A stretch of 32,000 nt of DNA, from the NCBI RefSeq assembly GCF_900289195.1, contig NZ_OMOH01000005.1, positions 150,001-182,000 on the forward strand, read 5' to 3'. The translations under genes were made by a program, and so were the position numbers. The DNA is from Propionibacterium ruminifibrarum (GTDB lineage: Bacteria > Actinomycetota > Actinomycetes > Propionibacteriales > Propionibacteriaceae). Numbering within the stretch: the first letter of the stretch is position 1; each line of letters starts with the position of its first letter. Under the pieces are notes generated by a model. It worked only from the letters and a program-made list of their open reading frames with translations. It ran no database searches and was not told the DNA's origin. Of the stretch, positions 1 through 17,018 are shown in pieces.

Positions 1-131
1 CGGACGTCGCGCCACCTGCCAACTCGGCAGCGATGGACGAGGCAGAAGAGGATTTCCTTACCTTGTTGAGGAAACTCGAGTCTAACCAGATCACCCCCGA
101 ACAGGCCATCGGCAAGGGAGAAGTCAAGTGA
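1..131 (+). CDS. 3' end (last ~42 codons) of an upstream ORF truncated by the window edge; acidic helical tail, possibly the docking tail of a preceding PKS/NRPS-type subunit
   Basis: The frame starting at position 3 reads DVAPPANSAAMDEAEEDFLTLLRKLESNQITPEQAIGKGEVK, then TGA at 129-131. This TGA overlaps the GTG start (128-130) of the PKS (GTGA coupling). No catalytic motif is visible, so the product is inferred from context only. Confidence 0.5.
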   Translation, partial: DVAPPANSAAMDEAEEDFLTLLRKLESNQITPEQAIGKGEVK

Positions 132-3100
132 GTACGGATTTTCGTCATGAGCTGATGGACATGGTGTATAGAGGAGAGATCAGCGCTGAACAGGCTGCTG
201 CTATGTTGCCACGGGCCGGGAAACCATTGCCAGCGAGAAGCGGCGAGGACGTCGCGGTCGTCGGGATGTCGGGACGTTTTCCGGGTGCAGACGATGTCGA
301 CGAATTCTGGCGGCTGATCGAGCAGCAACGCTCCGCCATCGTGGATGTGCGTTCCCGATGGCCGCAGATCGCGGAACTCCTCGACTCCGCCTCCCGCAGT
401 GGGCACGCCTACAGCCACTGGGGCGCCCTGATGAACAGCATCACCGACTTCGATCCGGCGTTCTTCGATCTGTCGCCTCGGCAGGCGCAGTTGATGGAAC
501 CGCGCCAGCGGTTGTTGCTCATGGAGGCCTGGCGTGCGATCGAGGAAGCTGGGTACTCTAGGGCTGAACTCGACGGTCGCAATTGCGGCGTATTCATCGG
601 CTGTGAGGGTAGCTCGGACTATTTCCACGACATGCGGTTCGACCGCATGGACGGAAATGTCGTGCTAGGACACTCGAATTCCGTACTGGCGGCGAGGCTC
701 TCATACTTCATGAATCTCACCGGCCCAACGATGAGCATCGACACGGCATGCTCGTCCTCATTGGTGGCCATCCACTTGGCGTGTCGTTCGCTTCTCGACG
801 GGACATGCGACATGGCCCTCACCGGTGGGGTCACGGTCATGTATTCCATGGCCGATCAACTGCTCCAGTCAGACATGGGCATGCTGTCGCCGACCGGACG
901 ATGCGCGACTTTCGACGTGGGCGCGGATGGCTTCGTGCCTGCAGAGGCAGCAGCCGTGCTGGTGCTGAAGAGGTTGTCGGACGCGGTCCGTGACGACGAC
1001 CACATCCATGGGATCATCCGCGCCACCGCCATCAACCAGGACGGCAAGACGAACGGCATCACAGCCCCCAGCGCACTGTCCCAGGAACGCTTGATCAGGG
1101 ATGCATGGCGGTCGGGACACGCAGACCTGTCGACAATGAGGTACATCGAGGCACATGGGACGGGAACGCCGCTGGGTGATCCGATCGAAGTCGACGCCTT
1201 GGTGCGGACCTATGGAGGACTGAGCGCCTCGGGGCGGATCGGTGTCGGGTCGGTCAAGACGAACGTTGGTCATGCCGGGGCAGCTTCGGGTGTCATGTCC
1301 ATGGTCAAGGTCCTCATGGCGATGAGGCACGGTGACATCCCCGCGAGCATCAATCTCACAGAGGTCAACCCCCGTATTCGACTGGAAGGCTCCAGTCTGC
1401 ACATTGTCAGAGACCTGGAGCCCCTGTACCTGGATGATGGGGAGGCTACCGTCGCGGTCAGCTCCTTCGGCTACAGCGGGACGAACGCCCACATCATCGT
1501 CGAGTCAGCGAGACATCTTGCCACCCCCGTGAACGGGGGTGGTCTGGAGGCTCCCGATTTGCCGTTGACGTTGTTTCTTTCCGCAGCCTCTGAGCAGGCA
1601 CTTCTGGACCTGTGCTCCGCGTATGACCGGTGGTTGGCGACGCACGGTGAGGGTTTAGATCTTCTCCAGCTGTGCATCCAGTCCTTGGTCACTAGGACCC
1701 AGATGCGGTACCGAGTGGCTGTCGAGTTCACCAACCTCGCCGAGTTGCAGGACGGCCTCCGGTGCGTTGACGGCTCTATGATCACCAGGGCCATGCGACA
1801 CGTCGACGCCCAGGACCTAGTCATTGTCGACCGACTGATCGCCGCTATGAAGCCGCCGAAGGGGGATCGCCACGGGCTGGCACGCCTGATGAACCGGCTG
1901 GTCACGACTTGGTCCCACGGAGTGGATGGTGACTACTTGGTGTTGCGTGCCTACACCGGGCGTCGGCTCAGTCTGCCCACTTACCGGTTCTCGCACGCGA
2001 CCTATGAGCTCGAATCGGACGACTTGGTCGCGGGAGAGCACGTCCGGGCGCTGCCGACCGGTGCGGACGCGCCTGTCTCCCCCCGGATACGTCGAACAGA
2101 TGACGGCTCCGGGTTTGAGTTCGAGATGTCCGGTGATGACTTCTACGTGCGTGACCACACACATGTCGTTCCTGCCGCGGTTCACTTGGAGATGATCGTG
2201 CAGGGTGCTGCGCATCTGGATCCTGATCGCCCGGTGACATCCATACGTAACGTCATGCTCATGCGTCACGTTGACGTGCCAGCCGGTGAAACTGTCACGG
2301 TCAGGTTGGACGTGGCGAGAATTGCCGACGACCGCATCCGGTTGGTCATCGGTTCGGGATACGGGCAGGATTACGGGCCATGCGTATCGGCCGAGGTCGT
2401 CTACGGAGACCGTGCCCGGGCCACTCCGCCCGGTGTGGCATCTCACGCCGACGCCTATCCCGAACCCGATGCAATTGCTGTTGGTGCCTACCGAGATTAT
2501 CTCGACCAGTGCAATGCCAGCGTGGGCCCGACCTTCCGAGGCGTCAGGACGCTCGCACTTGGGCCGGACGATGCGTTAGTGCACATGGACCCGAACGCCA
2601 GCGGGAATGATCTGAGTGGATTCATGCTCAATCCGACGCTGTTGGATGCTGGGTTCAGTGGCGCAGCGATCTGGGTGTGGGCAGCGCACCCGGAGGCCCA
2701 TGGTATCTACGTGCCGTTCTCGCTGGGGAGACTGGATCTGGTCAACCCATCGCTGCACCCGGTAGCCATTCGCATCCACCAAGCACGACCTGCCACCGGT
2801 GGTGACGTCCAGACTGTCGGATACAATCTTGATTACCTCTCGGACAGTGGCGACGTAGTCTGGCACATAGAGAATTTCTTCCTTCGCCGACTGGCGTCTC
2901 CGACGGTTGATGATCCATCTGATCTTGGCGTGTTGGCGGTGCGGGAGACCTGGCGCCGCAACCCAGGGCGAGCGTCCTGTGCCTCGGCACTGGTGGTGCT
3001 GAGTACCCTAGACAGACTGGGGCAGGCCCGTGAGATCGTCTCCGCCAACGGCGGCGCGCATGTCCTGATCAGCGTCGATGGATCCTGGAGCCCGGCCCAC

Positions 3101-6100
3101 GATGATGTGGTCTTCCTTGATGACCTCACCGAGGATGAACTGGCCGAGGCGCTGATTCCCGGCGTCGATTCTGATCTTGCAGTAGTGGCCCTCCCGATGC
3201 GTCCTCGGGTTGGTGGGGACCCGGCGCCAGGGCAGCAGACCTCCTGTGTTCTGCGTGTCGTCAGGAATCTCTTGAAGAACCAGCCGAACAGAATCACCGA
3301 CGTCATCACCACGACCTACGGTGATCCCGCCGAACTTGCCCTGGCAGGCTTCCTACGTACCATGCATGTCGAGAACTCCTGCTATCGTGGCCACGTTCTT
3401 CGCGCCGACGCCGACGATCTCGTCACGGCAGTGTGTGACGAGCTGGGGAACGCCAGCGCGTCGAGCGAGGTACAGCGCCGCGACGGTGTGCGGTACGAAC
3501 TGACCCCGCAGATTGCCCCAGACTTCCATGTTCGTCCGGAGGCCGAGGACCGCATCCGGGGCGGCGCTTTCCTCATCACAGGAGGAACCGGTGCGCTCGG
3601 CATGGTCCTCACCCGACATCTGCTCGATCACGGGGCCGATGTGGTGATCGTGAGCGGACGCTCCCATACGGTAGCATCCCGCATCGCCGAACCAGCCATG
3701 AACGCCAAGAGTGAATACCTCCAGTGGGATGTGAGCGGTACAGGACTGACAGCCGGAGTGACGGCGGACATCCGCCGAATCCTGTCCAAGCACGGCCACG
3801 ACGCCTTGACAGGCGTTTTCCATGCAGCGGGGGTCATTCACGATGGCGTGATCGCAGCCAAGGACGATGACGTCTTTCTGGCCACAGTCGCCCCCAAGAT
3901 GTGGGGCACTGACCATGTCATCGAAGTGGCTCGTGCCTGCGGCGCGGAGTTCGTCCTGCTCTTCTCGTCGACTGCAGCAGCCCTCGGCAACCCCGGCCAG
4001 TCTGACTATGCCTACGGAAATCGCTACATGGATGCGGTGGCGGCCAACCAGGACGAGGCATCCCTTCCGAAGATCCAGTCCGTGAACTGGACCATCTGGG
4101 CTGGCGACACCGGCATGACTGTCCCGAAGGCGCAGGCGCGGCTGATGGAGGAGCGCTTCGGCATCGTGCCCCTACCGGTGGACCAAGGGTTGTCGGTGCT
4201 CAATGCTGTGGTTGCATCAGGCGAGCGACGAGTGACGATCCTCTATGGACATCCCATGCTGATGCAGAAACGGCTGCTGGCAACCACCGAGCCGGAAGCC
4301 CTGGTAAGCATGTCCCTCCCCGCGAGGGAGGACACTGACCCCGCACTGGACGCCATGCTCGTGGCGGACTTGCGTGAAATCGTCGGAGTGGCCCTGCGGA
4401 TATCCCCCTCTGAGATCGATTTCGATGAGGATATGGCGCGCTTCGGATTCGACTCTATCTCTTTTTCTGGCTTGGCGAACACGCTTAACCAAAAATTCTC
4501 GCTCGACATGACCCCGGCAGTTTTTTTCAAGTATTCGAGCCTTGGTGAACTCAAGGACGACATGCTGGCGGAGTACCGGCAGGAACTCGAATCCCATTAC
4601 GCTCAGCAGGAGGCGTCTGACTGGACGCCGTCACAACTCTCTGATCACGGTACAGGAAACGTCGGGCAGCCTGCCCCGGCTTTCGCAGCGGCGAGGCGAT
4701 CGGCGGGCGTGCAACTCGCCGATGGCGCTCCCCTCCGGCCGCCCGACAACGAACCGATCGCCATCATCGGCATGTCTGCCCGGCTGCCGGGCTCGGATTC
4801 GATCGATGAATTTTGGGATCACCTGATGGCCGGAGATGATCTGATCAGCGAGATACCGGCTGACAGATGGGACTGGCGTGCCCACTACGGCGATACCAGC
4901 AAGGATAGGACGAAGACGCGATTTCACCACGGTGGTTTCATGAAGCGGATCGACACCTTCGACCCGTACTTCTTCGGCATCGCAGGGGTGGACGCGGAAG
5001 TCATGGATCCCCAGGAGCGGATGGTGCTCGAGGAGAGCTGGCATGCTCTCGAAGACGCGGGAATCGTGCCCGCTGCTCTGGCCGGCGGTGAGACGGGCGT
5101 GTTCGTGGGGGTCTCTACGGGCGACTACCAGGAACTGCTGATCCGGGACGCATACCCCAACATGCTAACCCAGACCATGATCCCGAACAGGGTCTCGTTC
5201 ACTCTCAACCTCCACGGTCCCAGCGAAGTGGTGGATACAGCCTGCTCGAGCACATTGGTCGCGTTGCACCGCGCTGCGTCAGCGATTCGATCGGGACGAT
5301 GCGAGATGGCGCTTGCCGGCGGTGTGAACGTAATCTGCTCTCCCGGCATGTACGTGACCCAGGGGCGTATGAACATGTTGTCGCCGGACGGTCGATGCAA
5401 GACCTTTGATGCCGCAGCAGACGGTTACGTCCGGGGTGAGGGCTGCGGCATATTCGTCCTCAAATCTCTCAGCGCGGCCGAGCGTGATCACGATAGGATC
5501 CTAGGTGTCATCAGGGGTTCTGCAGTGAACCACGGCGGAGCTGCCACCAATTTGTTTGCCCCCAATGAGGCCGCCCAGGTGCAAGTCATCCGCCGTGCTC
5601 ACGAAGGGATCGGAATCGCTCCGGACGAGGTTGCCTATATCGAGGCACACGGAACCGGGACGGTGCTGGGCGATCCGATCGAAGTCAACGCCTTGATCGG
5701 TGCCTACCGTGAACTCTACGAGGCGGCGGGGCTCCGATTCGACGGAGACGCAGCTGACGTTTACCTTGGCGCCGTGAAGACCAACACGGGGCACTTAGAG
5801 GCGGCTGCTGCCGTGCCCGGCCTAGTGAAGATCCTGCGATCCTTCCAGGCGGGGTTCATACCCCGCAACATCCACTTCACATCCATGAACCCGTACCTCC
5901 GGTTGGCTGGCACCCCGATCAAGCTGGCTAATGATCCGATCGCCTGGGGCTCGATCACCGCCGATCCCCGAAGGCAGCGGCCGGTGGCGGCCATCAGTTC
6001 CTTTGGTATCGGGGGAGTGAACTGTCACCTTGTGCTGGAGGCGCCGCCGCGCGATCCCGACGTGTCACCGGTCCGGGCCGAAGGTCCGTTCGTGCTGCCG

Positions 6101-8101
6101 GTTTCGGCTCGTACCGAGTCTCAACTGGTGGACTACGTGAACGAAATCCGTGGCTTTGCGCTGGCGCATATGGCCAACGACTCTGGGAAGAACCTATTCG
6201 AGCAGGTCAGCGCACGCTGCATGCAACTGCTCGGCGTCACATCCGCCGACGAGTTGGACATGGGTGTCTCACTGATCGACTACGGCGTGAGCCCGACGGA
6301 TCTGGCTGGGATGGACGATGGCATAGTGGCTCTCGACCCCAGGATGACTCTGGCGGACGTGGCCGCCCTGCCAGCATGTAGCGCGTCGCATTCTCAGGGC
6401 AGCGGAGCGGATCTGCTTGCTGACGTGTGCGAGACTTTCCGCGTCGGAAGAACCAGGTTCAACAACAGAGTGGCTTTCGTCGTCAGGGATATTAAGGAAC
6501 TGGTGGATCAATGCGGCGCCCACTTGGCTGCAGAAGGCACCGCTGGCGTCCTTGAGCCGGACCCGGCGACACCGGTCGAGCGGCAGGCACGCGCGTGGGT
6601 CGCTGGCGATGATTCGGCCCTTCAACCGATCCCCGGAGCGAGCCGGATATCTGCTCCCTGCTATCCGTTCGAGGAGCAGCGCTTCTGGTACACGGATTAT
6701 CAGCTTGATTCCGGGTCGGCGCAGGGCCGCGCGACCGATGCCGAGGACGTCTGTCCAACCGCGGGGGCGCAGGCTGTCACCTCGTCGGTGTCGATGAGCG
6801 AGGGTGGCCTCGGGATCAGAAGCAGGGTCTTGGCAAGCCTGTGCCACGTACTAAAGATCCCCGCCGAGCAGGTGGCAGATGACGAGCCGTTTGCATCCTA
6901 CGGACTCGACTCGATCAAGCTGATCCAGTTCGCAGATGAGCTGGCGCGCCAACTCAACCACGATGTAGATCCGGTTGTCCTCCTCGACTATCCAAGTCTG
7001 GGAACCCTTGCCCAGTATTTCGAGGCGCTAGAGGTTGTCTACTCGGATGCCCCACACGGCCAGGAAATCGTGGCCACGTCGGGACAGACCGAGATGATGC
7101 CGCCACCTCTCGGTCACGGAGTCATCCTCAGGCTGCCGGAACTGATCGTTCTCCACGCTGCCAAGGAGTTCGACCGACAAATGATGGTTTCGTTCTGGCG
7201 CGAACTGGCCGATGGGGAGATCGGGCACATTGACATGGTTCCGTGCGGCCCGGACGGTCTCGAGGGAATGCGTCGTAAAGGGCTCTGTTATGTTCACTGC
7301 CTCACCAGAGACGCTAAAGGTAGGCTGGCCGAGGCTTGGGTCGGCGGGCAGGGAGAGGAAACACTGCTGATCATCAATGGGATCGGCGTCGCCCCTTCCT
7401 TCGCGTCCCCGCAGATTGCGGGGTTTGCTGGTGGGCGACGCATCGTGTGTCTATCGATGCCGGGAGTCGGTTTGACTCCGATGATCGACGATCTCTCATT
7501 GGCTAGCCTGGCAGAATGGGTGCTGTCGAGCCTTGACGCGCTGCAAATCGAGCGATTCGACGTGCTCGGGGTCTCTTGGGGCTCCCTGCTGGCCACGACA
7601 CTCGCGTGGACAGCGCCAAAACGAGTCCAGCGACTCGTCCTGGAGTCGCCGAACGCTGACATGGGCGAGGTGGAGAACGCGACGAACTATGTCGAGGATC
7701 TCGCCACGGTCATGAACGCGGACTTTGCGATGGCGACCGGATCCCACGACGAGGCCGCCAGACTGTTCACCGATGCCAAGTGCTTCGAGCTGAGAGCCTT
7801 CCTGCGATGGAGCGACTACTTCGCGGTGAACAGCCCGTCGCGTCACGAAGTGCTCTCGCTGTTACCTGAGATTCACCAGCCCGTGCTCGTGATCACCGGG
7901 GACCGGGACACGATCACTCCAGCGCGGGAGTCTGACCTTGTCGCCCTCTATCTGAAGAACGCGCGGGTTCACACGGTCTACGGGGCATCGCATCTTCCAT
8001 CCGCCACGCACCCGAATGAGTTCAACACGGTGGTCACCGCTTTCTTGTGCGATCCCGACGCCATGCTTGGGTTCGCATCTGGTGACCAAGTTCACGAATA
8101 G
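128..8101 (+). CDS. Type I modular polyketide synthase, AT-less (trans-AT type), 2657 aa: KS-DH(noncanonical)-KR-ACP-KS-ACP-alpha/beta-hydrolase
   Basis: Single uninterrupted ORF with a GTG start coupled to the upstream stop and TAG at 8099-8101. Two complete KS domains carry Cys-His-His triads. There are a Rossmann TGGTGALG KR, two carrier domains (GFDSIS, GLDSIK) and a C-terminal GVSWG hydrolase. No GHSxG/AFHS acyltransferase motif occurs anywhere, and the post-KS linkers are too short to hold an AT. Confidence 0.97.
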   Translation: MSTDFRHELMDMVYRGEISAEQAAAMLPRAGKPLPARSGEDVAVVGMSGRFPGADDVDEFWRLIEQQRSAIVDVRSRWPQIAELLDSASRSGHAYSHWGALMNSITDFDPAFFDLSPRQAQLMEPRQRLLLMEAWRAIEEAGYSRAELDGRNCGVFIGCEGSSDYFHDMRFDRMDGNVVLGHSNSVLAARLSYFMNLTGPTMSIDTACSSSLVAIHLACRSLLDGTCDMALTGGVTVMYSMADQLLQSDMGMLSPTGRCATFDVGADGFVPAEAAAVLVLKRLSDAVRDDDHIHGIIRATAINQDGKTNGITAPSALSQERLIRDAWRSGHADLSTMRYIEAHGTGTPLGDPIEVDALVRTYGGLSASGRIGVGSVKTNVGHAGAASGVMSMVKVLMAMRHGDIPASINLTEVNPRIRLEGSSLHIVRDLEPLYLDDGEATVAVSSFGYSGTNAHIIVESARHLATPVNGGGLEAPDLPLTLFLSAASEQALLDLCSAYDRWLATHGEGLDLLQLCIQSLVTRTQMRYRVAVEFTNLAELQDGLRCVDGSMITRAMRHVDAQDLVIVDRLIAAMKPPKGDRHGLARLMNRLVTTWSHGVDGDYLVLRAYTGRRLSLPTYRFSHATYELESDDLVAGEHVRALPTGADAPVSPRIRRTDDGSGFEFEMSGDDFYVRDHTHVVPAAVHLEMIVQGAAHLDPDRPVTSIRNVMLMRHVDVPAGETVTVRLDVARIADDRIRLVIGSGYGQDYGPCVSAEVVYGDRARATPPGVASHADAYPEPDAIAVGAYRDYLDQCNASVGPTFRGVRTLALGPDDALVHMDPNASGNDLSGFMLNPTLLDAGFSGAAIWVWAAHPEAHGIYVPFSLGRLDLVNPSLHPVAIRIHQARPATGGDVQTVGYNLDYLSDSGDVVWHIENFFLRRLASPTVDDPSDLGVLAVRETWRRNPGRASCASALVVLSTLDRLGQAREIVSANGGAHVLISVDGSWSPAHDDVVFLDDLTEDELAEALIPGVDSDLAVVALPMRPRVGGDPAPGQQTSCVLRVVRNLLKNQPNRITDVITTTYGDPAELALAGFLRTMHVENSCYRGHVLRADADDLVTAVCDELGNASASSEVQRRDGVRYELTPQIAPDFHVRPEAEDRIRGGAFLITGGTGALGMVLTRHLLDHGADVVIVSGRSHTVASRIAEPAMNAKSEYLQWDVSGTGLTAGVTADIRRILSKHGHDALTGVFHAAGVIHDGVIAAKDDDVFLATVAPKMWGTDHVIEVARACGAEFVLLFSSTAAALGNPGQSDYAYGNRYMDAVAANQDEASLPKIQSVNWTIWAGDTGMTVPKAQARLMEERFGIVPLPVDQGLSVLNAVVASGERRVTILYGHPMLMQKRLLATTEPEALVSMSLPAREDTDPALDAMLVADLREIVGVALRISPSEIDFDEDMARFGFDSISFSGLANTLNQKFSLDMTPAVFFKYSSLGELKDDMLAEYRQELESHYAQQEASDWTPSQLSDHGTGNVGQPAPAFAAARRSAGVQLADGAPLRPPDNEPIAIIGMSARLPGSDSIDEFWDHLMAGDDLISEIPADRWDWRAHYGDTSKDRTKTRFHHGGFMKRIDTFDPYFFGIAGVDAEVMDPQERMVLEESWHALEDAGIVPAALAGGETGVFVGVSTGDYQELLIRDAYPNMLTQTMIPNRVSFTLNLHGPSEVVDTACSSTLVALHRAASAIRSGRCEMALAGGVNVICSPGMYVTQGRMNMLSPDGRCKTFDAAADGYVRGEGCGIFVLKSLSAAERDHDRILGVIRGSAVNHGGAATNLFAPNEAAQVQVIRRAHEGIGIAPDEVAYIEAHGTGTVLGDPIEVNALIGAYRELYEAAGLRFDGDAADVYLGAVKTNTGHLEAAAAVPGLVKILRSFQAGFIPRNIHFTSMNPYLRLAGTPIKLANDPIAWGSITADPRRQRPVAAISSFGIGGVNCHLVLEAPPRDPDVSPVRAEGPFVLPVSARTESQLVDYVNEIRGFALAHMANDSGKNLFEQVSARCMQLLGVTSADELDMGVSLIDYGVSPTDLAGMDDGIVALDPRMTLADVAALPACSASHSQGSGADLLADVCETFRVGRTRFNNRVAFVVRDIKELVDQCGAHLAAEGTAGVLEPDPATPVERQARAWVAGDDSALQPIPGASRISAPCYPFEEQRFWYTDYQLDSGSAQGRATDAEDVCPTAGAQAVTSSVSMSEGGLGIRSRVLASLCHVLKIPAEQVADDEPFASYGLDSIKLIQFADELARQLNHDVDPVVLLDYPSLGTLAQYFEALEVVYSDAPHGQEIVATSGQTEMMPPPLGHGVILRLPELIVLHAAKEFDRQMMVSFWRELADGEIGHIDMVPCGPDGLEGMRRKGLCYVHCLTRDAKGRLAEAWVGGQGEETLLIINGIGVAPSFASPQIAGFAGGRRIVCLSMPGVGLTPMIDDLSLASLAEWVLSSLDALQIERFDVLGVSWGSLLATTLAWTAPKRVQRLVLESPNADMGEVENATNYVEDLATVMNADFAMATGSHDEAARLFTDAKCFELRAFLRWSDYFAVNSPSRHEVLSLLPEIHQPVLVITGDRDTITPARESDLVALYLKNARVHTVYGASHLPSATHPNEFNTVVTAFLCDPDAMLGFASGDQVHE
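248..1507 (+). other. PKS domain KS1 (ketosynthase, predicted condensation-competent)
   Basis: aa ~41-460. Begins DVAVVGMSGRFPGA. Active-site DTACSSS has Cys208 (TGC at 749-751). EAHGTGTPLGDPIE supplies His343 and KTNVGHAG supplies His382. Confidence 0.9.
2075..2902 (+). other. PKS domain: double-hotdog dehydratase-like (DH/PS-DH fold) with noncanonical catalytic motifs
   Basis: aa ~650-925. FYVRDHTHVVPAAVHLEM stands where HxxxGxxxxP is expected; His677 is present, but the Gly is missing and the spacing is 4 residues shorter. The GPTF (YGPxF-like) motif lies at aa 800-803. LLDAGFS occupies the DxxxQ/H position, with Asp840 present and Ser instead of Gln/His. Confidence 0.6.
3560..4132 (+). 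other. PKS domain KR (ketoreductase catalytic subdomain); the structural subdomain probably spans ~2930-3560
   Basis: aa ~1145-1335. NADPH site FLITGGTGALG. HAAGVIHDG lies at the LDD position, with Asp retained, which suggests B-type stereochemistry. The catalytic region is SSTAAALGNPGQSDYAYGNRYMDA (Tyr1294, Asn1298). Confidence 0.85.
4340..4573 (+). other. PKS domain ACP1
   Basis: aa ~1405-1482. LVADLREIVGVALRISPSEIDFDEDMARFGFDSISFSGLANTL, with the phosphopantetheine Ser1443 (TCT at 4454-4456). Confidence 0.9.
4748..6043 (+). other. PKS domain KS2 (ketosynthase, predicted condensation-competent)
   Basis: aa ~1541-1972. Begins EPIAIIGMSARLPGS. DTACSSTL has Cys1706 (TGC at 5243-5245). EAHGTGTVLGDPIE supplies His1841 and KTNTGHLE supplies His1889. 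Confidence 0.9.
6809..7033 (+). other. PKS domain ACP2
   Basis: aa ~2228-2302. IRSRVLASLCHVLKIPAEQVADDEPFASYGLDSIKLIQFADEL, with Ser2262 (TCG at 6911-6913). Confidence 0.9.
7280..8062 (+). other. PKS C-terminal alpha/beta-hydrolase-fold domain (putative chain-release domain, not a classical type I TE sequence pattern)
   Basis: aa ~2385-2645. Oxyanion-region LLIINGIG. Nucleophile elbow GVSWG with Ser2483 (TCT at 7574-7576). VLVITGDRDTITP supplies the acid residue and GASHLP supplies His2622. Confidence 0.8.
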
Positions 8102-8114
8102 GAGACGCACTGAT

Positions 8115-10238
8115 ATGGTGAACGCATCGACGAGGGTCCGGCTGCTGTGCGCGGTAAACGGTGATTTCTATTCCCACGTCGCCAGGGTCCTGGCCATCGC
8201 TTTGAGATTGCGGGAATATCCTCAATTTGACATCGCATTCTCCGGCAGTGGACGTTTCATGTCCCTCGTCGAGGACCAGGGGTTTGAGGTTCTGGTGACA
8301 GACCATCTCACCGTCGAGGAGGTGGTAGAGAAGTCGGATGAGCGTGGAATTCATTGGTACGACGACCCGGTCCGCCTTGACGCGCTGTTCGCTGCCGAAC
8401 AGGAGGTGTTCGACCGTTGGCGACCTGATGTGTGCCTGAGAGACAACTTCCGCGATCCGGCCAGCGTAGTTGCTCATATGCGCGGGGTCTTGGATATCAT
8501 GATTATCCAGGCTAGCCAGACCGACGCCTACCGGTTCGATTTCATTCCCATCAACTATGATCTGACCGGAGGGGAGGATCAGAAGGAGGCGATGCCAGGC
8601 CTGGTTAGGCTGGCACGCCGAAACGTCTATGCCCCGCTTTACGCAAAAGCCCGAGAGATGGGATTGTCCCCCGAATGCTGTCAGGATTTTGGCGCGGCGG
8701 CGGACTTGTATCTAGTTGCTGACAGCTATTGCCTCTTCCCGATTAAGCCGAGTTCTGGTCACTACGAGCACGTCGGGCCCTTGTGGTACATCAATGCCCA
8801 GGCCAGGCCAGTCTGGCTCGAGGAATTCAGTAACTCGCCTCTGGACCGTTTTCTTATTGCGACCGGATCCACAGGAACTACCAGTTTCGATGAGTTCTTC
8901 CGTCAAGTTGATCCCCAACACGACACATACGCGCTGGCTTTCACTGATGAGGTTCCCCCGCCTTTCTTCGGGGGGTCACCGTCGATCACGAGCACCGTTC
9001 TTCCGCATTGTGATCTGATCGTAAGCGACGGGGGACTTGGTGCCACCTATATGGCCCTCTATGCGGCTAAGCCTACAGTCGCGATCTTCGACCGGTTCGA
9101 ACAACAAGCCAATAGTAGAGCCTTGGAACGGCTTGGCGTGGGGATCGGTTTCGGGATCGGCACGTTGGGCCCCGATGACTTGGTGTGTGCAACGCAGACT
9201 CTCTTGCGGAACCCCGTGGTTGCCTCACAGCTACGGAAAGCTCAACAACGACTGCTCGACGAGCCGGAAGGTGCTCGCTTTGCGGCCATGCTGGTGGCGC
9301 GTGAGTGCGCCCGGCACGCGTCATGGGCTTCGGAGTTCTTGGCTCCCGTGATAGCGGATCTCGAAGAAGAATCCCGGAGCCATCGTCTGGGCGATGAACC
9401 ATGGGTTGCGGCATTAGTTGCAGATTCCTGCTGGTCGGCCGACGGGCGAGGTGACGCAGCGCTCCAGTTCTCCAGCTACCGTGCAGCGCCCAAAGCACCG
9501 GTACTCGACTTCAGGCTCGATGTCGGCCATGTGATAGCGATTGTCGCACAATCGACGGAGGTGGCTGATCGAATCGTAACGGGGCTCGAGGGACGGGGCG
9601 CGGCTGAGGAGGGAAGCGTGACCTTGTTTGGCACGCCGGTGCATGTTGGCGAAACCACGGTGGTGGAACTCGAGTCTCCGACATCGGGGGCACGCGTGGT
9701 CCAGCTCGGTTCCCAACCACTATTCCGGGATGGCCTGCTCACCGGGGCCGACACCGCTGATCGGCTTCTGCTGGTGGTGACCGACGATGACGTTCATGAT
9801 GAAAGGACACTCGCGGAGATCGCCCAGCAGATGGCTCAGTTGCGTGACGATGACACAGCGGTGCTGCTGGTCACAACATCTCCACGTCTCGCGGAAATGT
9901 CCGCCGACGAGGTGGTGCTGGTCGCCCCTGACCATGCTCTCGGACCGGCAGAATCCCGGCGCATCGTGGCTAGATACTGTCCAGGTAGCATCGTGTCCTG
10001 GCATCCGTCCGGGCCGATGCAGGTCGTCGTCCGACACGCGCTCGAGGGGCGTCCTGAGTTCATCGACACGTCCGGGAAGTCGGCCTGCATCACCGACGAC
10101 GTCGCCGGATTCATCAAGCAGCTCGAGATGGCTGGTGCGCGTCAAGGACTTGCATTGGACGAACTGACCATTCGTGCAGCGCATCTCGATGACGTCTACG
10201 CCCTTCTGTTCCCGCCCACGCAGGCAGGTGACCGATGA
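8115..10238 (+). CDS. Fusion protein: N-terminal GT-B (GT1/MGT-like) glycosyltransferase plus a C-terminal degenerate ABC-type ATPase (DrrA/ABC-2-like NBD with a DUF4162-like tail)
   Basis: ATG at 8115 lies 10 nt after AGGAG (8100-8104) and 13 nt after the PKS stop. The N-terminus RVRLLCAVNGDFYSHVARVLAIALRLRE..FDIAFSG is a GT-B N-lobe. The C-lobe signature is LPHCDLIVSDGGLGATYMALYAAKPTVAIFDRFEQQANSRALERLGVG. From aa ~480 (ORF-track numbering) the sequence aligns to ABC NBDs. GHVIAIVAQSTEVADRIVTGLEG replaces the Walker A segment GxxGxGKT/S. LLLVVTDDD and AVLLVTTSPRLAEMSADEVVLV stand for Walker B and the H-loop region. No LSGG signature is present. The tail LTIRAAHLDDVYALLF resembles the sLEDVFl ending of DrrA-type ATPases. 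Confidence 0.85.
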   Translation: MVNASTRVRLLCAVNGDFYSHVARVLAIALRLREYPQFDIAFSGSGRFMSLVEDQGFEVLVTDHLTVEEVVEKSDERGIHWYDDPVRLDALFAAEQEVFDRWRPDVCLRDNFRDPASVVAHMRGVLDIMIIQASQTDAYRFDFIPINYDLTGGEDQKEAMPGLVRLARRNVYAPLYAKAREMGLSPECCQDFGAAADLYLVADSYCLFPIKPSSGHYEHVGPLWYINAQARPVWLEEFSNSPLDRFLIATGSTGTTSFDEFFRQVDPQHDTYALAFTDEVPPPFFGGSPSITSTVLPHCDLIVSDGGLGATYMALYAAKPTVAIFDRFEQQANSRALERLGVGIGFGIGTLGPDDLVCATQTLLRNPVVASQLRKAQQRLLDEPEGARFAAMLVARECARHASWASEFLAPVIADLEEESRSHRLGDEPWVAALVADSCWSADGRGDAALQFSSYRAAPKAPVLDFRLDVGHVIAIVAQSTEVADRIVTGLEGRGAAEEGSVTLFGTPVHVGETTVVELESPTSGARVVQLGSQPLFRDGLLTGADTADRLLLVVTDDDVHDERTLAEIAQQMAQLRDDDTAVLLVTTSPRLAEMSADEVVLVAPDHALGPAESRRIVARYCPGSIVSWHPSGPMQVVVRHALEGRPEFIDTSGKSACITDDVAGFIKQLEMAGARQGLALDELTIRAAHLDDVYALLFPPTQAGDR

Positions 10239-10246
10239 CGACTATA

Positions 10247-10288
10247 GTTTCTTTGCCATCTGTTTCAAAGAAACCGTCGGCGTTTTTT
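10247..10288 (+). promoter_or_regulatory. AT-rich 9-bp hairpin followed 8 nt later by a T6 run, lying between the GT-fusion gene and the ligase gene (weak terminator or attenuator candidate)
   Basis: GTTTCTTTG (10247-10255) pairs perfectly with CAAAGAAAC (10266-10274) across a 10-nt loop. TTTTTT lies at 10283-10288. This is unusual AT-rich structure in a GC-rich locus. Confidence 0.3.
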
Positions 10289-10316
10289 GCCAACTCGTTC
10301 GGGAAAGGCCATCCCG

Positions 10317-11924
10317 ATGAGCATCGTTGATCTTCTGAGGAAGAACGCCCGTGAAATCGGCGAACAGTGTGCTCTCGTTGAATTGGACGTAGATGTCAGG
10401 ACCCAGTGGGTCCCGGAGGAGCCATCGGGCTGGCGTCATAACCTGGCGGCTTGGTGTGTCCGTCGTGAACTGAGCTGGTCAGAGTTCAACCAGCTTTCCA
10501 ACCAATGGGCTGGTTTCCTCATGACTCGCGGAATCAGCACGGGTGACCGCGTCGGGATCCTTATGCTCAACGGGATCGAGTGGCTACCCGTCTACTTCGG
10601 AGTTCTCAAGGCAGGGGCGGTTGTCGTCCCGCTGAACTTCCGTTATGAATCAGCGGAGATCGACTACTGCCTCGAACTCGCAGAAGTCAAGGCTCTCGTG
10701 TTTGGCTCGGAATTCACTGCCAGACTCGCTGAGACCCAATCGGCCCGTGAAGGGCGGTGCGCGATGCTCATGGTGGGCGGTCCGTGTCCGGAGTTCGCAG
10801 AGCCATTCGTTGGGGATCCGTCCGCCGTTGACCCCTGCATTCTCACCGATCCTTCCGACGATGCAGCCATCTATTTCTCAAGCGGCACGACGGGTTTCCC
10901 TAAAGCGATCCTTCATTGCCATTCAGCCCTGATTCACGCTGCGCGGGCCGAGCAGAATCACCACTCCCAGACAGGCGACGACGTCTTCCTGTGTATTCCA
11001 CCTCTGTACCACGCCGGCGCGAAGATGCATTGGTTCGGGAGTCTGCTCACAGGCGGACGGTGTGTGTTGCTGCGTGGAGTGACCCCATGGTCGATCCTAG
11101 CAGCGGTCAGCGCTGAGAAATGCACCATCGTGTGGCTGCTGGTTCCATGGGCGCAGGACATCCTGCTGGCCATCGAACGGGGAGAACTCGATCCTGCAGC
11201 GCATGAACTGGACCAGTGGCGGCTTATGCATATCGGTGCTCAACCGGTTCCAGAGAACCTCATCTGGAGATGGCAGGAGACTTTCCCAAATCAACGCTAT
11301 GACACGAACTACGGTTTGACCGAGGCTACAGGTCCCGGGTGTGTCCATCTCGGCGTCGACAACGTCGACCACGCGGGAGCTATAGGGCGCGCAGGATATG
11401 GATGGCGGACCAAGGTGGTCGATGATTGCGGTCGCGATGTGGTGCGGGGGCAGCGTGGCGAACTCGCAGTCCGTGGCCCCGGGGTTATGAAGGGCTACTT
11501 CAAGGATGAGACCGCCACACGGGCGGTTCTCGATTCCGACGGGTGGCTCCTGACCGGAGATATCGTTGAGGAAGATCCCGATGGTTTCCTGTGGCTCGTA
11601 GATAGGAAGAAGGATGTGATCATCAGCGGGGGTGAGAACATCTACCCTGGGCAGATCGAGCGATTCTTAGCGGGGGACCCGCGGGTCAAAGATGTCGCAC
11701 TGATAGGTCTTCCCGATGAGCGCCTCGGAGAGGTTGCGGCTGCAGTCGTGGAGGTGAAGCCTGATGTTGTGCTCACTTCAACAGACGTATTCGCCTTGTG
11801 TGAGGAATTGCCGCGCTACAAGCGTCCGCGGCACATCATCTTTGCCCCAGTCATCAGGAACGGAACGGGAAAGATTGATAAACCTGCCTTGAGAGCCATG
11901 TACGCCCATTCAGATGGTTTCTGA
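10317..11924 (+). CDS. AMP-dependent synthetase/ligase (ANL superfamily; acyl-CoA synthetase-like)
   Basis: ATG at 10317 is preceded by GGGAAAGG; the track start at 10287 is a TTG and is less likely. Core motifs present: YFSSGTTGFPKA (A3), YGLTEA (A5), GWLLTGD (A7), DRKKDVIISGGENIYP (A8) and GKIDKPALR (A10 Lys). No obvious FAAL-type insertion was seen. Confidence 0.9.
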   Translation: MSIVDLLRKNAREIGEQCALVELDVDVRTQWVPEEPSGWRHNLAAWCVRRELSWSEFNQLSNQWAGFLMTRGISTGDRVGILMLNGIEWLPVYFGVLKAGAVVVPLNFRYESAEIDYCLELAEVKALVFGSEFTARLAETQSAREGRCAMLMVGGPCPEFAEPFVGDPSAVDPCILTDPSDDAAIYFSSGTTGFPKAILHCHSALIHAARAEQNHHSQTGDDVFLCIPPLYHAGAKMHWFGSLLTGGRCVLLRGVTPWSILAAVSAEKCTIVWLLVPWAQDILLAIERGELDPAAHELDQWRLMHIGAQPVPENLIWRWQETFPNQRYDTNYGLTEATGPGCVHLGVDNVDHAGAIGRAGYGWRTKVVDDCGRDVVRGQRGELAVRGPGVMKGYFKDETATRAVLDSDGWLLTGDIVEEDPDGFLWLVDRKKDVIISGGENIYPGQIERFLAGDPRVKDVALIGLPDERLGEVAAAVVEVKPDVVLTSTDVFALCEELPRYKRPRHIIFAPVIRNGTGKIDKPALRAMYAHSDGF

Positions 11925-11950
11925 TTATGGTGGTCCCGAGTAAAATGAGG

Positions 11951-11969
11951 CTCCATCGTGTCGGTGGAG
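11951..11969 (+). terminator. Short hairpin after the ligase gene (possible terminator or IS-end structure)
   Basis: CTCCATCG / CGGTGGAG forms an 8-bp stem (one G-U pair) with a 3-nt loop, 27 nt after the stop. There is no U tract. Confidence 0.25.
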
Positions 11970-12065
11970 CGATTAGGTCATCGTCAAGGCCTTGTCGATC
12001 TGGATGTGGATCTTAGCCTTGAAATCCAGCGGGTTAAAGCGTTCGATCTGATTCGTACCAGTTGA

Positions 12066-12331
12066 AAGATGATGACCGACCATGGGATTCTCCAATCCGT
12101 GGGCCGGATCGGTAGCTGCTTCGACAATGCCGCTGCCGAGTCCTTCAATGCGATCCTGAAGAACGAACTCGTGAACCGTAAGGTCTACCCGACCCGTCAG
12201 TACGCAGCCCAGGACGTGACAGCCTGGATCGAGTACGACTCGATCGCAAACGCCTCCACTCGGCCATCGATTACCAGACTCCCAACCAAGTCGATACCGA
12301 ATGGAGGCAACACCAGCAGACAGCAGCCTAA
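12066..12331 (+). mobile_element. IS3-family transposase (OrfB/integrase-core) C-terminal remnant, 5'-truncated and frameshifted (pseudogene)
   Basis: DHGILQSVGRIGSCFDNAAAESFNAILKNELVNRKVYPTRQYAAQDVTAWIEY matches the conserved ..G...S.G..G.C.DNA.AESF...LK.E. block of IS3 transposases. The expected continuation RKRLHSAIDYQTPNQVDTEWRQHQQTAA* is found only in the -1 frame from 12245 (TAA at 12329-12331). No N-terminal or DDE part is present. A possible right end ...CACTCCA lies near 12372. Confidence 0.75.
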
Positions 12332-12404
12332 ACCAACCATTAACCACTGTCCGAAAAACCTATATCACTCCAGAGTTTTGCATAACCCTCCTGGTTCTTC
12401 ATTG

Positions 12405-12535
12405 CTGAACGTCAAGCTATCCACCGCAGCACCTTCACCTCGGTGGCAAGGGCCGCAGTTCATCACTGGCTGGGACAAACGCAAACATCCATTCGTATGG
12501 ACAAAACCCTCGACAGAATCAACTGGAAAGGTAAG
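12405..12535 (+). mobile_element. IS630/Tc1-mariner-family transposase extreme C-terminal remnant (pseudogene fragment)
   Basis: QFITGWDKRKHPFVWTK (about 12456-12506) matches the conserved FI..WN....PF.WTK tail of IS630-family transposases. Nothing upstream resembles the catalytic domain. Confidence 0.55.
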
Positions 12536-12657
12536 TATGCCTCAACTACAGGATACACTTGGATCGTGTTCGCCTGCTCGCCTATGCTCTCTTGCGACGA
12601 CCGATCCCGTCCGGCCCACGACGTCCGGAACGGTTCCAGCACGTCAAGGAGACTCAG

Positions 12658-13194
12658 ATGACCTCTCGCCGAATCCCTCTTCTCGCCCGGCTCGGCCTGC
12701 CCGCCATCGCCCTGGCCCTTGTCACCGGCTGCGCACCCAGCGCCAGTACCGCGATGGTCATTGACGACGTGACGGTCTCCGAGAACCACCTCGACGCCCT
12801 CACCGAGGGGTGCTCCGAGGCCCTCGACATAGCCGGTCTCGGCGGCCAGTACCCAGACGGTGAGGTGCGCCGGAACGTCGCCTCCTGGGTCGCGCAGGGC
12901 CTCATGGCCGACGCCCTCATCGAGCGCGCCAACATCACCGTCTCCGACAGTGAGCTCCAGGAGGCCCGTGCCGGGCTGAGGAACTCCGAGCTGTTCACCA
13001 CCACCGCCAACTGCACCGACGCCTTCATGGGCATCGTCAAGCTCACCGCCTACGTCTCCATGGAGGGTGAGGCCACCGCTCTCGCCCAGGCCGCCGACGT
13101 CGAGGTCGAGATCAACCCCAGGTACGGCACCTGGGATCTCGACGAACTCACCATCGAGGGCACCGGTTCGCTGTCCTCACGCAGTGAGAGCTGA
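12658..13194 (+). CDS. Lipoprotein, SurA-N-terminal-domain-like (function uncertain)
   Basis: ATG at 12658 lies 8 nt after AAGGAG (12644-12649). The signal peptide has a lipobox: MTSRRIPLLARLGLPAIALALVTGC. The stop TGA (13192-13194) overlaps the mazG ATG by 1 nt. Confidence 0.8.
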   Translation: MTSRRIPLLARLGLPAIALALVTGCAPSASTAMVIDDVTVSENHLDALTEGCSEALDIAGLGGQYPDGEVRRNVASWVAQGLMADALIERANITVSDSELQEARAGLRNSELFTTTANCTDAFMGIVKLTAYVSMEGEATALAQAADVEVEINPRYGTWDLDELTIEGTGSLSSRSES

Positions 13195-13832
13195 TGGTCG
13201 CTGAGGACCCCGAACCCAGGGGCGCCCAGTTCGAGCGCCTCGTGCAGGTGATGGACCGGCTGCGGGTCGACTGCCCGTGGGATGCCGCGCAGACGCACCG
13301 CAGCCTCGTCAAGCACCTCATCGAGGAGTCCGCCGAACTGGTCGACGCCATCGAGACCGGCAGCGACGAGGACCTGCGCGAGGAACTCGGGGACGTCCTC
13401 ATGCAGGTGGTCTTCCACGCCAGGCTCGCCGAGGAGGACGGGCTCTTCACCATCGACGACGTCGCCGCCGCCATCGCCGACAAGCTGGTGCGGCGCCATC
13501 CCCACGTCTTCGCCGGCGAGGACACCCCGGACGACCTGGACACCCTCTGGGAGGTGCGCAAGCGCGCCGCCAAGCGCCGGGACTCCTGCCTGGACGGCAT
13601 CGCCGAGTCCCTGCCGACCCTGGCCCGTGCGGCGAAGACGGCCCAGCGCCTGGACAACGGGGGACCGGACCAGGTGCCGTTCGCCGACGAACCGATCACC
13701 GCCGAGGAGGCCGGTACACAAGTCCTTTTGCTGGTGCAAAGAGCCCAGGCGAGCGGCGTCGACATCGACCAAGCCGTTCGTGACGCCACCCGAGCCTGGG
13801 AGGACACTATCAGGGACGCTGAGAAATCCTAG
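13194..13832 (+). CDS. mazG: Nucleoside triphosphate pyrophosphohydrolase MazG
   Basis: FERLVQVMDRLRVDCPWDAAQTHRSLVKHLIEESAELVDAIE...LREELGDVLMQVVFHARLAEE...KLVRRHPHVF is the typical MazG EExxE/D motif context. The position upstream of eno matches actinobacterial synteny. Confidence 0.92.
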   Translation: MVAEDPEPRGAQFERLVQVMDRLRVDCPWDAAQTHRSLVKHLIEESAELVDAIETGSDEDLREELGDVLMQVVFHARLAEEDGLFTIDDVAAAIADKLVRRHPHVFAGEDTPDDLDTLWEVRKRAAKRRDSCLDGIAESLPTLARAAKTAQRLDNGGPDQVPFADEPITAEEAGTQVLLLVQRAQASGVDIDQAVRDATRAWEDTIRDAEKS

Positions 13833-13846
13833 GCGGGCCCGAGCCG

Positions 13847-13864
13847 GCGCACCGTCCGGTGCGC
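13847..13864 (+). terminator. Hairpin after mazG
   Basis: GCGCACC-GTCC-GGTGCGC, a 7-bp GC stem, lies 15 nt after the TAG. There is no U tract, which is common in high-GC actinobacteria. Confidence 0.35.
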
Positions 13865-13874
13865 GGACGCAGCC

Positions 13875-13935
13875 TTGACATTGTGTGAATTTGCTGATTT
13901 CGTTTAGTTATTCGCATATGCAAATGAAAGGAGGC
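13875..13935 (+). promoter_or_regulatory. AT-rich putative promoter/RBS region for the downstream lipoprotein gene
   Basis: A perfect TTGACA lies at 13875-13880 in a locally AT-rich stretch. The 8-bp palindrome GCATATGC lies at 13914-13921. The RBS AAAGGAGG (13927-13934) lies 5 nt before ATG 13940. No convincing -10 hexamer could be fixed. Confidence 0.35.
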
Positions 13936-13939
13936 TGCC

Positions 13940-14677
13940 ATGGCTCGCATCCCGGCCCTCATCCTCGGTCTCGGCGTGTCCACTCTGCTTCTCGTCAGCG
14001 CCTGCCTCGGCCCCACCGACAACGACTCCCAGACCGGTGCGGACGCATCCACGGCCGCCCGGTCCGCCTCCTCCGCGTTCGTCTCGCCCGCCGGCTCCAG
14101 CGGTACCGCCTCGCCGAGCCGTTCGGCGTCGAGCCCGGTCTCGTCCACGGCGTCCTCCAGCGCCTCGGGCGGCGCCGTGAGCGACGAGTACGAGGGCAAG
14201 CGCACCAACGACTTCCAACGCATCGCGGCCGACGAACTCGGCGGACTGCCCCAGCGCCGTCTCAAGAGCGACCCGCCCAACCACGAGATGACCGTCCAGT
14301 ACGTCACGGGCGACTCCAGCCGCCAGATCTTCCTGCGCGCCTACTTCGCCGGCCAGAACGGTGAACTCGGCCCGGTCGCATCGGTCGACGATCCCTACTT
14401 CGACACCGTCGTCACCAGCGCACGCGACGCCTTCGTCGACGAGGGCGCCCCGGACGTCGTCATCCGTACCACCACGGTGCAGGGCCTGGAGTGGAGCTGC
14501 GCCGAGGGCATCAACCCGACCAAGAACATCCACCGCGGGCTGTGCGCCACCGTCAAGTACGGCCGCGTCATCGAGATCCAGCCCACGCAGGTCGGCCCCG
14601 ACGCCGACGGAGCCACGAGCCGGGCCTGGGACGACCAGATCATGAACGAGGTCAGCGCACTCGTCAACGCGCTGTGA
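13940..14677 (+). CDS. Lipoprotein with Ser/Ala-rich linker (unknown function; occupies the position of lpqU in M. tuberculosis synteny)
   Basis: Signal peptide plus lipobox MARIPALILGLGVSTLLLVSAC. The low-complexity linker is SASSAFVSPAGSSGTASPSRSASSPVSSTASSSASGG. A strong RBS is present. Confidence 0.85.
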   Translation: MARIPALILGLGVSTLLLVSACLGPTDNDSQTGADASTAARSASSAFVSPAGSSGTASPSRSASSPVSSTASSSASGGAVSDEYEGKRTNDFQRIAADELGGLPQRRLKSDPPNHEMTVQYVTGDSSRQIFLRAYFAGQNGELGPVASVDDPYFDTVVTSARDAFVDEGAPDVVIRTTTVQGLEWSCAEGINPTKNIHRGLCATVKYGRVIEIQPTQVGPDADGATSRAWDDQIMNEVSALVNAL

Positions 14678-14781
14678 ACCGCCGCCCTCATCGTCGGCCG
14701 CCCTCCGTCTCGCCTGATGAGCGCCCCAGGAACCATGGCTCGGGCCGGTGGTGAACCGATAGGATTGGCGCGCGAGAGTGA

Positions 14782-16119
<1,338 letters not shown>

Positions 16120-16164
16120 ATGTCCTGGACGGCCAGGTGCACTGACCTGACCGGCCCCTGATCC

Positions 16165-16194
16165 GGAGGGCGGCGCCCCACGGTGCCGCCCTCC
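16165..16194 (+). terminator. Strong GC hairpin downstream of eno
   Basis: GGAGGGCGGC (16165-16174) pairs perfectly with GCCGCCCTCC (16185-16194). The stem can extend by 3 more pairs around a 4-nt loop. There is no U tract. Confidence 0.5.
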
Positions 16195-16965: not shown

Positions 16966-17018
16966 GCCCACCCCCGGCGCGTGCCGGTCCTTCGCTCGCG
17001 CCGTGGAAGAATTGAACC

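Follow-up and report, generated by a model that had tools for sequence, protein, structure and literature searches.

Why would a bacterium keep a glycosyltransferase fused to the ruins of a transport ATPase when the transporter itself is gone? The question is raised by a gene of Propionibacterium ruminifibrarum that lies in a stretch of 32,000 nucleotides (nt) of contig NZ_OMOH01000005.1 (assembly GCF_900289195.1, positions 150,001 to 182,000 of the forward strand). The whole stretch is called the window here, and its features are given in its own coordinates, the genes so placed being on the + strand. The gene (8115..10238) encodes a protein of 707 amino acids (aa), in which a family 1 glycosyltransferase (GT1) is followed by the remains of a nucleotide-binding domain (NBD) of the ATP-binding cassette (ABC) type. 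A first-pass annotation of this DNA had described a single open reading frame (ORF) that joins a GT-B glycosyltransferase (GT) to a degenerate DrrA/ABC-2-type NBD, and both the GT1 matches and the profile homology of the NBD bear this out. The most probable explanation, to which a probability of roughly 60% can be given, is that the NBD is a catalytically dead relic, which stayed on the GT as a passive structural appendage once the transporter had gone.

The ancestry of the relic is invisible to Pfam. No family matches aa 426-707 or aa 451-707 at E<=10, and the ABC_tran and DUF4162 families that the first-pass annotation expected in the C-terminal half fail to appear even at this threshold. 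Descent from a DrrA-type NBD is shown all the same, because intact homologues and a custom profile bridge the gap. By BLASTP, the C-terminal part of the protein matches the NBD of an intact homologue with an E value of 2e-10. A profile of 41 standalone DrrA-like NBDs, from which the fusion proteins were left out, matches aa 568-695 with 31.5 bits (E 6e-12, one sequence), and the best of 200 shuffled controls reached 7 bits. The last ~250 aa are therefore homologous to the DrrA-type NBDs of ABC-2 transporters.

The catalytic motifs of this domain are gone. Regular-expression searches over the whole protein find no Walker A, either in the strict form G..G.GK[ST] or in the loose form [AG]....GK[ST], no LSGG or SGG signature, and no Walker B of the form hhhhDE or hhhhD. 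An intact Walker A thus did not emerge after alignment, and the loss of the signature that had been claimed from the sequence stands. The N-terminal half of the relic (aa 455-567; 9477..9815) stands in for the Walker A, Q-loop, signature, and Walker B regions, with no motif left. In an alignment of 40 sequences, HVIAIVAQSTEVADRIVTGLEGRGAAEEGSVTLFG lies ungapped opposite the Walker A region of intact NBDs, with VAQSTEVADR (aa 477-486; 9543..9572), the Walker A equivalent, ungapped opposite GPNGAGK[ST]T. This agrees with the earlier statement that VAQSTEVAD replaces Walker A, but a three-sequence MAFFT alignment and pairwise alignments place the same stretch elsewhere. Also, different gap penalties in pairwise global alignments of the N-terminal half give incompatible placements. 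Because the alignments disagree, residue-level equivalence within aa 455-567 is tentative, and none is claimed for the signature or Walker B. The stretch aligned with the signature reads LGSQP in the three-sequence alignment and is gapped in the 40-sequence alignment, and LLLVVTDDD lies opposite ILFMDEPTA of Walker B in the three-sequence alignment. From the GSVxxxG strand to the H-loop there are 83 residues in the window protein compared to 123 in intact NBDs. The relic is 40-57 residues shorter than intact NBDs around the Q-loop (the whole protein is 57 shorter), and the missing residues correspond to those of the Q-loop and of the beginning of the helical subdomain; this length deficit is robust, while the placement of the gap depends on the alignment.

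The C-terminal half (aa 568-695; 9816..10199) is the only part of the relic with significant profile homology and comprises the helix after the D-loop, the H-loop strand, and the DrrA/NodI-type C-terminal regulatory domain. Here the TTH of the H-loop has become TTS (LLVTTS, nt 9864-9881), and the His is replaced, as alignments to intact NBDs show. In the alignments, residues 600-699 match the C-terminal domain found in DrrA-like NBDs, and the tail LDDVYALLF (aa 691-699; 10185..10211), an LDEVFL-like motif, lies opposite LEDVFLKL. The lost His and the retained tail had both been noted in the first-pass annotation, correctly in each case. Judged by its motifs, the relic can most likely neither bind nor hydrolyse ATP, nor energise transport. 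A model of aa 455-707 built with AlphaFold2 (AF2) from the 40-sequence alignment has a mean predicted local distance difference test score (pLDDT) of 76.8, with values of 86-94 over model blocks 111-180, 67-94 over the whole aa 568-695 segment, and a low 43-63 over model residues 41-100. A strand and helix persist in the model at the former P-loop, but the helix begins inside the loop. In this model, the C-terminal half is apparently foldable.

The origin of the relic can be read from its relatives. A search of 5.8 billion proteins returned only P0002 and P0003, which are 40-45% identical to the window protein and both carry precomputed ABC_tran domains. A HMMER search of 1.84 billion cluster representatives added one further fusion, P0004, among its best 150 matches, the others of which were standalone GTs (~400 aa) or NBDs. 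The database search that had been suggested for this architecture thus yields three intact GT-NBD lineages: one in Brooklawnia cerclae (WP_167165676.1, in the cluster of P0003), and two from metagenomes, represented by P0002 (Logan SRR29667955) and P0004 (Logan SRR7690493). Brooklawnia and Propionibacterium are both Propionibacteriaceae. The architecture is rare, with three 50%-identity representatives (four 90%-identity clusters), the window gene included, among ~15 billion proteins. All three intact relatives keep Walker A, I(L/I)F(M/L)DEPTAGLD, and TTHFMDEA. P0002 and P0004 match ABC_tran with E ~1e-30, and their best NCBIfam model is drrA, matched over the full model length (E 7e-74 and 2e-82).

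The genes around the intact fusions show what the window has lost. In three loci the order is polyketide synthase (PKS) with thioesterase, GT-NBD, and permease, with overlaps of 1 nt (L001), 4 nt (L010/L011), and 14 nt (L008); the intact fusion gene overlapping the permease start lies at L010 3653-6666, L001 10001-13011, and L008 4446-7695. The L001 locus (GC content 0.66) runs from PKSs of 2993 aa and 2785 aa to a GT-NBD of 764 aa and an ABC-2 permease of 238 aa (TGATG overlap), which matches ABC2_membrane and has drrB as its best NCBIfam model. An AMP ligase, a 137-aa ORF, Flavodoxin_2, an acyltransferase-enoylreductase (AT-ER), ABC_tran, and two FtsX genes follow. The L010/L011 locus, whose fusion belongs to the 90% cluster containing Brooklawnia cerclae WP_167165676.1, has the same order and then a phosphopantetheinyl transferase (PPTase), a metallo-beta-lactamase (MBL), and an acyltransferase (AT). 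In the L008 locus (GC 0.30), an acyl carrier protein (ACP)-thioesterase protein is followed by a GT-NBD of 735 aa, the ABC-2 permease, ABC_tran, FtsX, FtsX, and MBL, with no AMP ligase in the stretch seen. The intact clusters thus also hold a second ABC pump, of the MacB type (ABC_tran and two FtsX). Since intact fusions and their permease sit in syntenic trans-AT PKS clusters, the window protein is a derived remnant of a GT-transporter machine rather than an invention of its own lineage.

DrrAB-type pumps, macrolide-type GTs, and degenerate NBDs are all kinds already known; it is their fusion that is rare. No published description of a GT-ABC or GT-NBD fusion was found in the searchable literature, which likewise gave nothing relevant on the organism. 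This agrees with the first-pass annotation, which knew of no described GT-pseudoNBD fusion, although the automatic database annotation of WP_167165676.1, [quoted passage not shown] names both domains of the Brooklawnia protein.

In the window, the gene upstream of the fusion is the terminal PKS gene of the cluster (128..8101, 2657 aa), in which Pfam finds two ketosynthase domains, a dehydratase, a ketoreductase, two ACPs, and a C-terminal, thioesterase-like alpha/beta-hydrolase. It shares 46% identity and synteny with the PKS that precedes the intact L001 fusion, and it is taken to be a trans-AT PKS because it has no AT domain (and also a RhiE-like linker). At the site of the coupled DrrB-like permease gene of the intact clusters, there is an intergenic gap of 78 nt (10239..10316) with neither a + strand terminator nor a remnant of a permease. 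The absence of a permease from the window, as first reported, withstands both a tblastn search with the cognate permease and an unfiltered profile search in all six frames (--max, E<=10), each of which came back empty. Next comes an AMP-binding acyl-CoA/ACP ligase (10317..11924) that is 61% identical to the ligase after the permease in the intact clusters, and tblastn of the L001 genes 3' of that ligase finds nothing in the window. Directly after the ligase (boundary region 11925-13200), where the syntenic clusters run on with at least nine biosynthetic and export genes, lies the scar of an IS3-family transposase (12069..12764), truncated at its 5' end, with its first ~56 aa matching model positions 296-350 of 369 only. 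The coincidence of the IS3 remnant with the break in synteny suggests that the 3' half of the cluster was lost in a deletion associated with the insertion sequence. Neither the 32-kb window nor 10 kb upstream showed a gene for a trans-AT, AT-ER, or PPTase. A search for homologues with the C-terminus of the upstream 3599-aa PKS gave no scored match, and no Propionibacterium entry is present among the best 120 AT-ER homologues.

The rates of divergence set the relic apart from everything around it. Between the window and L001, identity is 46% for the PKS, 55% for the GT domain, and 61% for the ligase, compared to 62%, 68%, and 72% between L001 and L010, which gives a divergence ratio of ~1.4 in each case. 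For the NBD the two values are 24% and 83%, a ratio of 4.5. Relative to the GT, PKS, and ligase, the NBD has therefore diverged at about 3 times the rate; in the intact proteins no other part is conserved so well, and in the window protein none so poorly, while the GT behaves like its neighbours. Nevertheless, the reading frame of the relic is open over 245 codons (P = 0.0004 in composition-preserving shuffles), and its GC content at the three codon positions, 0.74/0.46/0.68, is as in the neighbouring genes. We read this as relaxed or changed constraint on the relic, rather than long neutral decay.

The GT half (aa 1-~399; 8115..9311) is of the YjiC/OleD/MGT-like kind, as its Pfam, NCBIfam, and PDB-chain matches indicate. 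Pfam EryCIII-like_C matches aa 294-393 with an E value of 2e-7, scoring 31.5 bits on the full protein (the cut-off is 31.7 bits) and 31.7 on the GT half alone, and NCBIfam macrolide-GT models match weakly (TIGR01426 MGT, E 3.5e-10, far below its curated cut-off). The domain by itself matches the PDB chains of Kcn28 (E 7e-7) and OleD (1e-4), and also of YjiC, OleI, and CalG, whereas a family profile of the window domain and eight standalone relatives reaches YjiC with E 5e-25 and OleI with 1.6e-18. The family profile supports its identity as GT1. Identity is 55% to the two high-GC intact fusions and ~30% to P0004. The catalytic His and Asp positions are kept: by alignment of 12 family members, His21 and Asp105 are invariant and Asp110 nearly so, and a His-Asp catalytic dyad is widely conserved among GT1 glycosyltransferases (PMC8662728). 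The D/E-Q sugar-binding motif, which lies about 24 residues beyond the donor signature, is kept as well (FEQQAN, aa 328-333), with E329 invariant and N333 nearly invariant.

The donor site is another matter. GT1 enzymes carry a donor signature H-G-G-x-G-S/T, of which the His and the Ser/Thr five residues on bind the phosphates of the NDP-sugar. Eleven relatives, fused and standalone, read F-[IV]-[TH]-H-[GC]-G-x-[GS]-S-T-[YF]-x-G here, typically LFITHGGLGSTYxGL, and the Phe, His, Ser, and final Gly are invariant in all 11. The corresponding stretch of the window protein is DLIVSDGGLGATYMAL (aa 300-315; 9012..9059), with the signature itself reading LIVSDGGLGATYMAL, so that THGGLGST has become SDGGLGAT. 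The four substitutions F302I, H305D, S310A, and G314A are found in the window protein only; they are its only substitutions that stand alone against all relatives, and all lie within one 13-residue stretch. D305 lies opposite the His of THGGMGG in Kcn28, and the motif lies opposite SHGGMNST in YjiC. Since H305D and S310A replace phosphate ligands, the binding of the donor has probably been impaired or changed in specificity. With its catalytic His and Asp positions kept, the GT may use another donor or be inactive, and it is uncertain from the sequence whether it still transfers sugar.

The two halves are joined by a linker (aa ~399-454; 9309..9476) with the motif ADL..S..HRLG.E.WV (aa 414-431; 9354-9407). 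The motif is invariant in the three actinobacterial fusions, including the degenerate one, and unrecognisable in the low-GC fusion P0004. It may be an element of the interface between the domains.

How could such a protein have come about? In the intact system, a polyketide released by the thioesterase would most likely receive its sugar on the cytoplasmic side of its own ABC-2 exporter, which would then pump it out. By analogy, this would be the “glycosylate and export” self-protection of the oleandomycin type (OleI/OleD and OleC), put into one machine. In the window lineage, the permease gene was cleanly lost, and the NBD lost Walker A, the Q-loop region, LSGGQ, the Asp-Glu of Walker B, and the His of the H-loop. 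The relic would now serve as a passive module of a soluble tailoring GT, aiding its folding, its stability, or its oligomerisation via the regulatory domain. It is taken as a structural module because the segment is open, codon-structured, and predicted to fold, and because the regulatory domain and the LDEVFL-like tail are its best-kept parts. C-terminal regulatory domains hold NBD dimers together in MetN/MalK-type proteins. Two roles had been offered in the first-pass annotation, of which dimerisation or another structural role fits the data and is preferred, while that of an adaptor docking the GT to an exporter is weakened by the shortened Q-loop region and the excised cognate permease.

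Several points weigh against this explanation. The window locus lacks the 3' half of the cluster, with both trans-ATs and the PPTase. As the donor motif of the GT is damaged, the whole protein might be inert. The best Foldseek matches of the relic model are all ABC NBDs with C-terminal regulatory domains (MetN, ABCA7, TM_1403, PmtCD, and NosF; E down to 4e-6, query-normalised TM-score up to 0.56), but the match is partly circular because the AF2 alignment consists of intact NBDs. A full-length AF2 model from the three-sequence alignment has a pLDDT of 39. The population is near-clonal, with 5-6 single-nucleotide polymorphisms (SNPs) in 13 kb; as the gene holds one SNP, a synonymous one, over the seven loci compared, population dN/dS is uninformative. 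Lastly, the coupling of glycosylation to export in the intact family is deduced from gene fusion and gene order only.

The alternative that survives best is that the whole protein, including the GT, is functionless and drifting towards a pseudogene that has not yet acquired a stop codon, the IS3-associated deletion having taken the trans-ATs, the PPTase, and the exporters. Much of the evidence given above would fit a dead cluster of this kind: the syntenic 3' half is replaced by a 5'-truncated transposase fragment, the permease and all ATPase motifs are gone, the donor-phosphate ligands H305 and S310 are replaced in the window protein alone, and the PKS lacks an AT domain. However, the three giant PKS ORFs of 2657, 2840, and 3599 aa are uninterrupted (window 128-8101; L009 1-10004). 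The GT shares the ~1.4-fold divergence of the PKS and ligase while the NBD stands at 4.5-fold, which argues that constraint on the GT continued while the NBD diverged. Also, 245 open codons after ~75% amino-acid divergence would be unexpected under neutrality, given the P value from the shuffles, and the codon-position GC is kept. The truncation may, of course, be recent and independent of a much older erosion of the NBD. On balance, a functionless protein is unlikely, though it deserves to be taken seriously.

A second alternative is that the regulatory domain and LDEVFL-like tail of the pseudo-NBD anchor the GT to a permease or exporter from another locus, which would keep glycosylation spatially coupled to an export that other ATPases power. 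The C-terminal domain and LDDVYALLF are indeed the best-conserved part of the relic, and cross-linking to DrrB and a requirement in assembly are reported for the LDEVFL motif of DrrA (PMC5947115, PMC3533511). The intact relatives, moreover, clearly work with a permease. The difficulty lies in the Q-loop and the start of the helical subdomain, which in the relic are shortened by 40-57 residues and unrecognisable. In ABC NBDs this region is the groove that takes the coupling helix of the permease. The cognate permease has been excised, the 32 kb show no ABC-2 permease in any frame, the sole ABC system of the window is an importer of the NMT1/SsuA type, and an ABC-2 exporter would need functional NBDs at the same sites that the relic would occupy. 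A docking adaptor is for these reasons improbable.

That the fusion or its garbled NBD is an artefact of assembly or sequencing, through a frameshift or two merged genes, is barely credible, since 13 contigs, assembled independently (ENA, JGI, NCBI, and Logan), encode exactly this 707-aa product, tblastn of an intact fusion against the window gives one collinear in-frame high-scoring segment pair (HSP) at the locus with none to the intact NBD in other frames, and the three intact homologues are likewise single ORFs. As far as sequence data can do so, the 13-contig recurrence and the in-frame-only match exclude an assembly-derived fusion or hidden frameshift, and the earlier doubt about two separate genes is settled in favour of one.

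The gene is an uninterrupted ORF of 707 codons from the ATG at 8115 to the stop at 10238, and its product is 100% identical to “Hypothetical protein PROPJV5_1532” (SPF68551.1) of Propionibacterium ruminifibrarum. A mechanical ORF list puts the start at 8016; the start is placed at 8115 because homologues align from there and because the 707-aa product is called at all six places shown. The DNA of the gene is identical at five of these six places and also at L009, and L004 differs by one synonymous base. The PKS stop codon, TAG, occupies 8099-8101, leaving 13 nt before the ATG. Read directly from the sequence, a ribosome-binding site, AGGAG (8100..8104), overlaps this stop codon and lies 10 nt before the ATG. 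The tight coupling to the PKS that had been pointed out is thus plain to see.

A bolder version of the preferred explanation can be put forward tentatively, although the odds are against it. The GT-NBD-permease module would be an undescribed ABC-2 machine for trans-AT polyketides that glycosylates while exporting, and the window protein would be a genuine pseudo-ATPase, bereft of all nucleotide-binding elements and of its permease but retained under selection as a non-catalytic module required by the GT, through constitutive dimerisation or through docking by the LDEVFL-like tail. If true, it would provide a rare example of an ABC NBD turned into a scaffold.

Compared to the intact GT-NBD fusions, the window protein shares the domain order, the linker motif, and the position after the terminal PKS/thioesterase gene. 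The high-GC clusters L001 and L010 have an AMP ligase after the permease, and the window likewise has a ligase after the fusion gene. The intact fusions differ in keeping every ATPase motif and a translationally coupled DrrB-like permease. They also differ in that their GT keeps THGGLGST and their NBD is the most conserved part (83%), whereas that of the window is the least (24%). Among described systems, DrrAB, the doxorubicin/daunorubicin ABC-2 exporter of Streptomyces peucetius (TIGR01188 drrA, TIGR01247 drrB), is the best curated family for the intact NBD and permease, and the window protein still has its C-terminal domain with an LDEVFL-type motif. DrrA, however, is a free-standing ATPase without a GT, while the window domain fails all catalytic-motif tests and is without a DrrB partner.

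The oleandomycin system of Streptomyces antibioticus comprises the glycosyltransferases OleI and OleD and the ABC-2 exporter OleC/OleC-ORF5, and the product is glycosylated intracellularly and then exported. Here too, a macrolide-type GT1 and a DrrA/DrrB-type pump belong to one pathway, and the GT has OleI and OleD among its best structural relatives. The oleandomycin proteins are separate, whereas in the window and its intact relatives the GT and NBD form one polypeptide. The clusters examined showed no secreted glycosidase for reactivation. The YjiC/BmmGT-type GT1 enzymes of Bacillus, which glycosylate trans-AT polyketides such as macrolactins and bacillaenes, are the top PDB relatives of the GT family profile. 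Unlike the window GT, they stand alone at ~390 aa and have an intact SHGGMNST, and only about the C-terminal half aligns significantly. Degenerate NBD sites are found in heterodimeric ABC transporters such as TAP1, CFTR NBD1, and TmrAB, where the P-loop is kept, ATP is still bound, and the transmembrane domains are attached. These are like the window domain in that catalytic residues are lost and the NBD is retained, but the window domain is without P-loop, Q-loop, signature, and permease.

Antibiotic producers classically protect themselves and ship their products in two ways, by glycosylation and by ABC export. The union of a macrolide-type GT with the ATPase of a DrrAB-type pump in one polypeptide suggests that a physical coupling of both steps is possible, and the family may link the glycosylation of an antibiotic-like product with the export of that product. 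This is of interest to natural-product biochemists and to engineers of glycosylated polyketides. The idea is directly testable because an intact member sits in cultured Brooklawnia cerclae, and the intact family is the more valuable lead than the window copy. The immediate biological importance of the latter may be small, since it is a degenerate remnant in a 3'-truncated cluster. One could consider it a natural experiment on what becomes of an NBD after permease loss, in which the catalytic half erodes and the regulatory half and linker persist. As such, it is informative for pseudoenzyme evolution and for telling the structural from the catalytic parts of ABC-2 NBDs.

The closest standalone relative of the GT, P0007 (L013 1302-8546), has as neighbours an alpha/beta-hydrolase, two AMP-binding enzymes, an ACP, and a ketoacyl-ACP synthase III (KAS III), and these neighbours tie the GT subfamily to acyl/polyketide-type clusters even when unfused. 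No ABC genes were seen within its 6-kb flank. An unfused arrangement of GT, drrA, and drrB was seen near none of P0007, P0008, and P0009, the contigs of the last two being short (2.8-3.9 kb).

Downstream of the IS3 scar, the window continues with the core genes MazG, enolase, DivIC, DUF501, and Ppx-GppA. The GC content is ~0.57-0.63 over the island of PKS, GT, and ligase (1-13000) and ~0.65-0.73 in the core genes (13000-32000). As it is lower than in the core genes that follow, the polyketide island looks horizontally acquired. The only ABC system of the window, at 25.7-28.8 kb, is the NMT1/SsuA-type importer. Its operon (25681-28822, + strand) encodes an NMT1/SsuA-like substrate-binding protein, a BPD_transp_1 permease, and an ABC_tran ATPase, and is unrelated to the ABC-2 relic. 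An overlapping ORF at 27113-28822 probably over-extends the ATPase gene of this importer at its 5' end.

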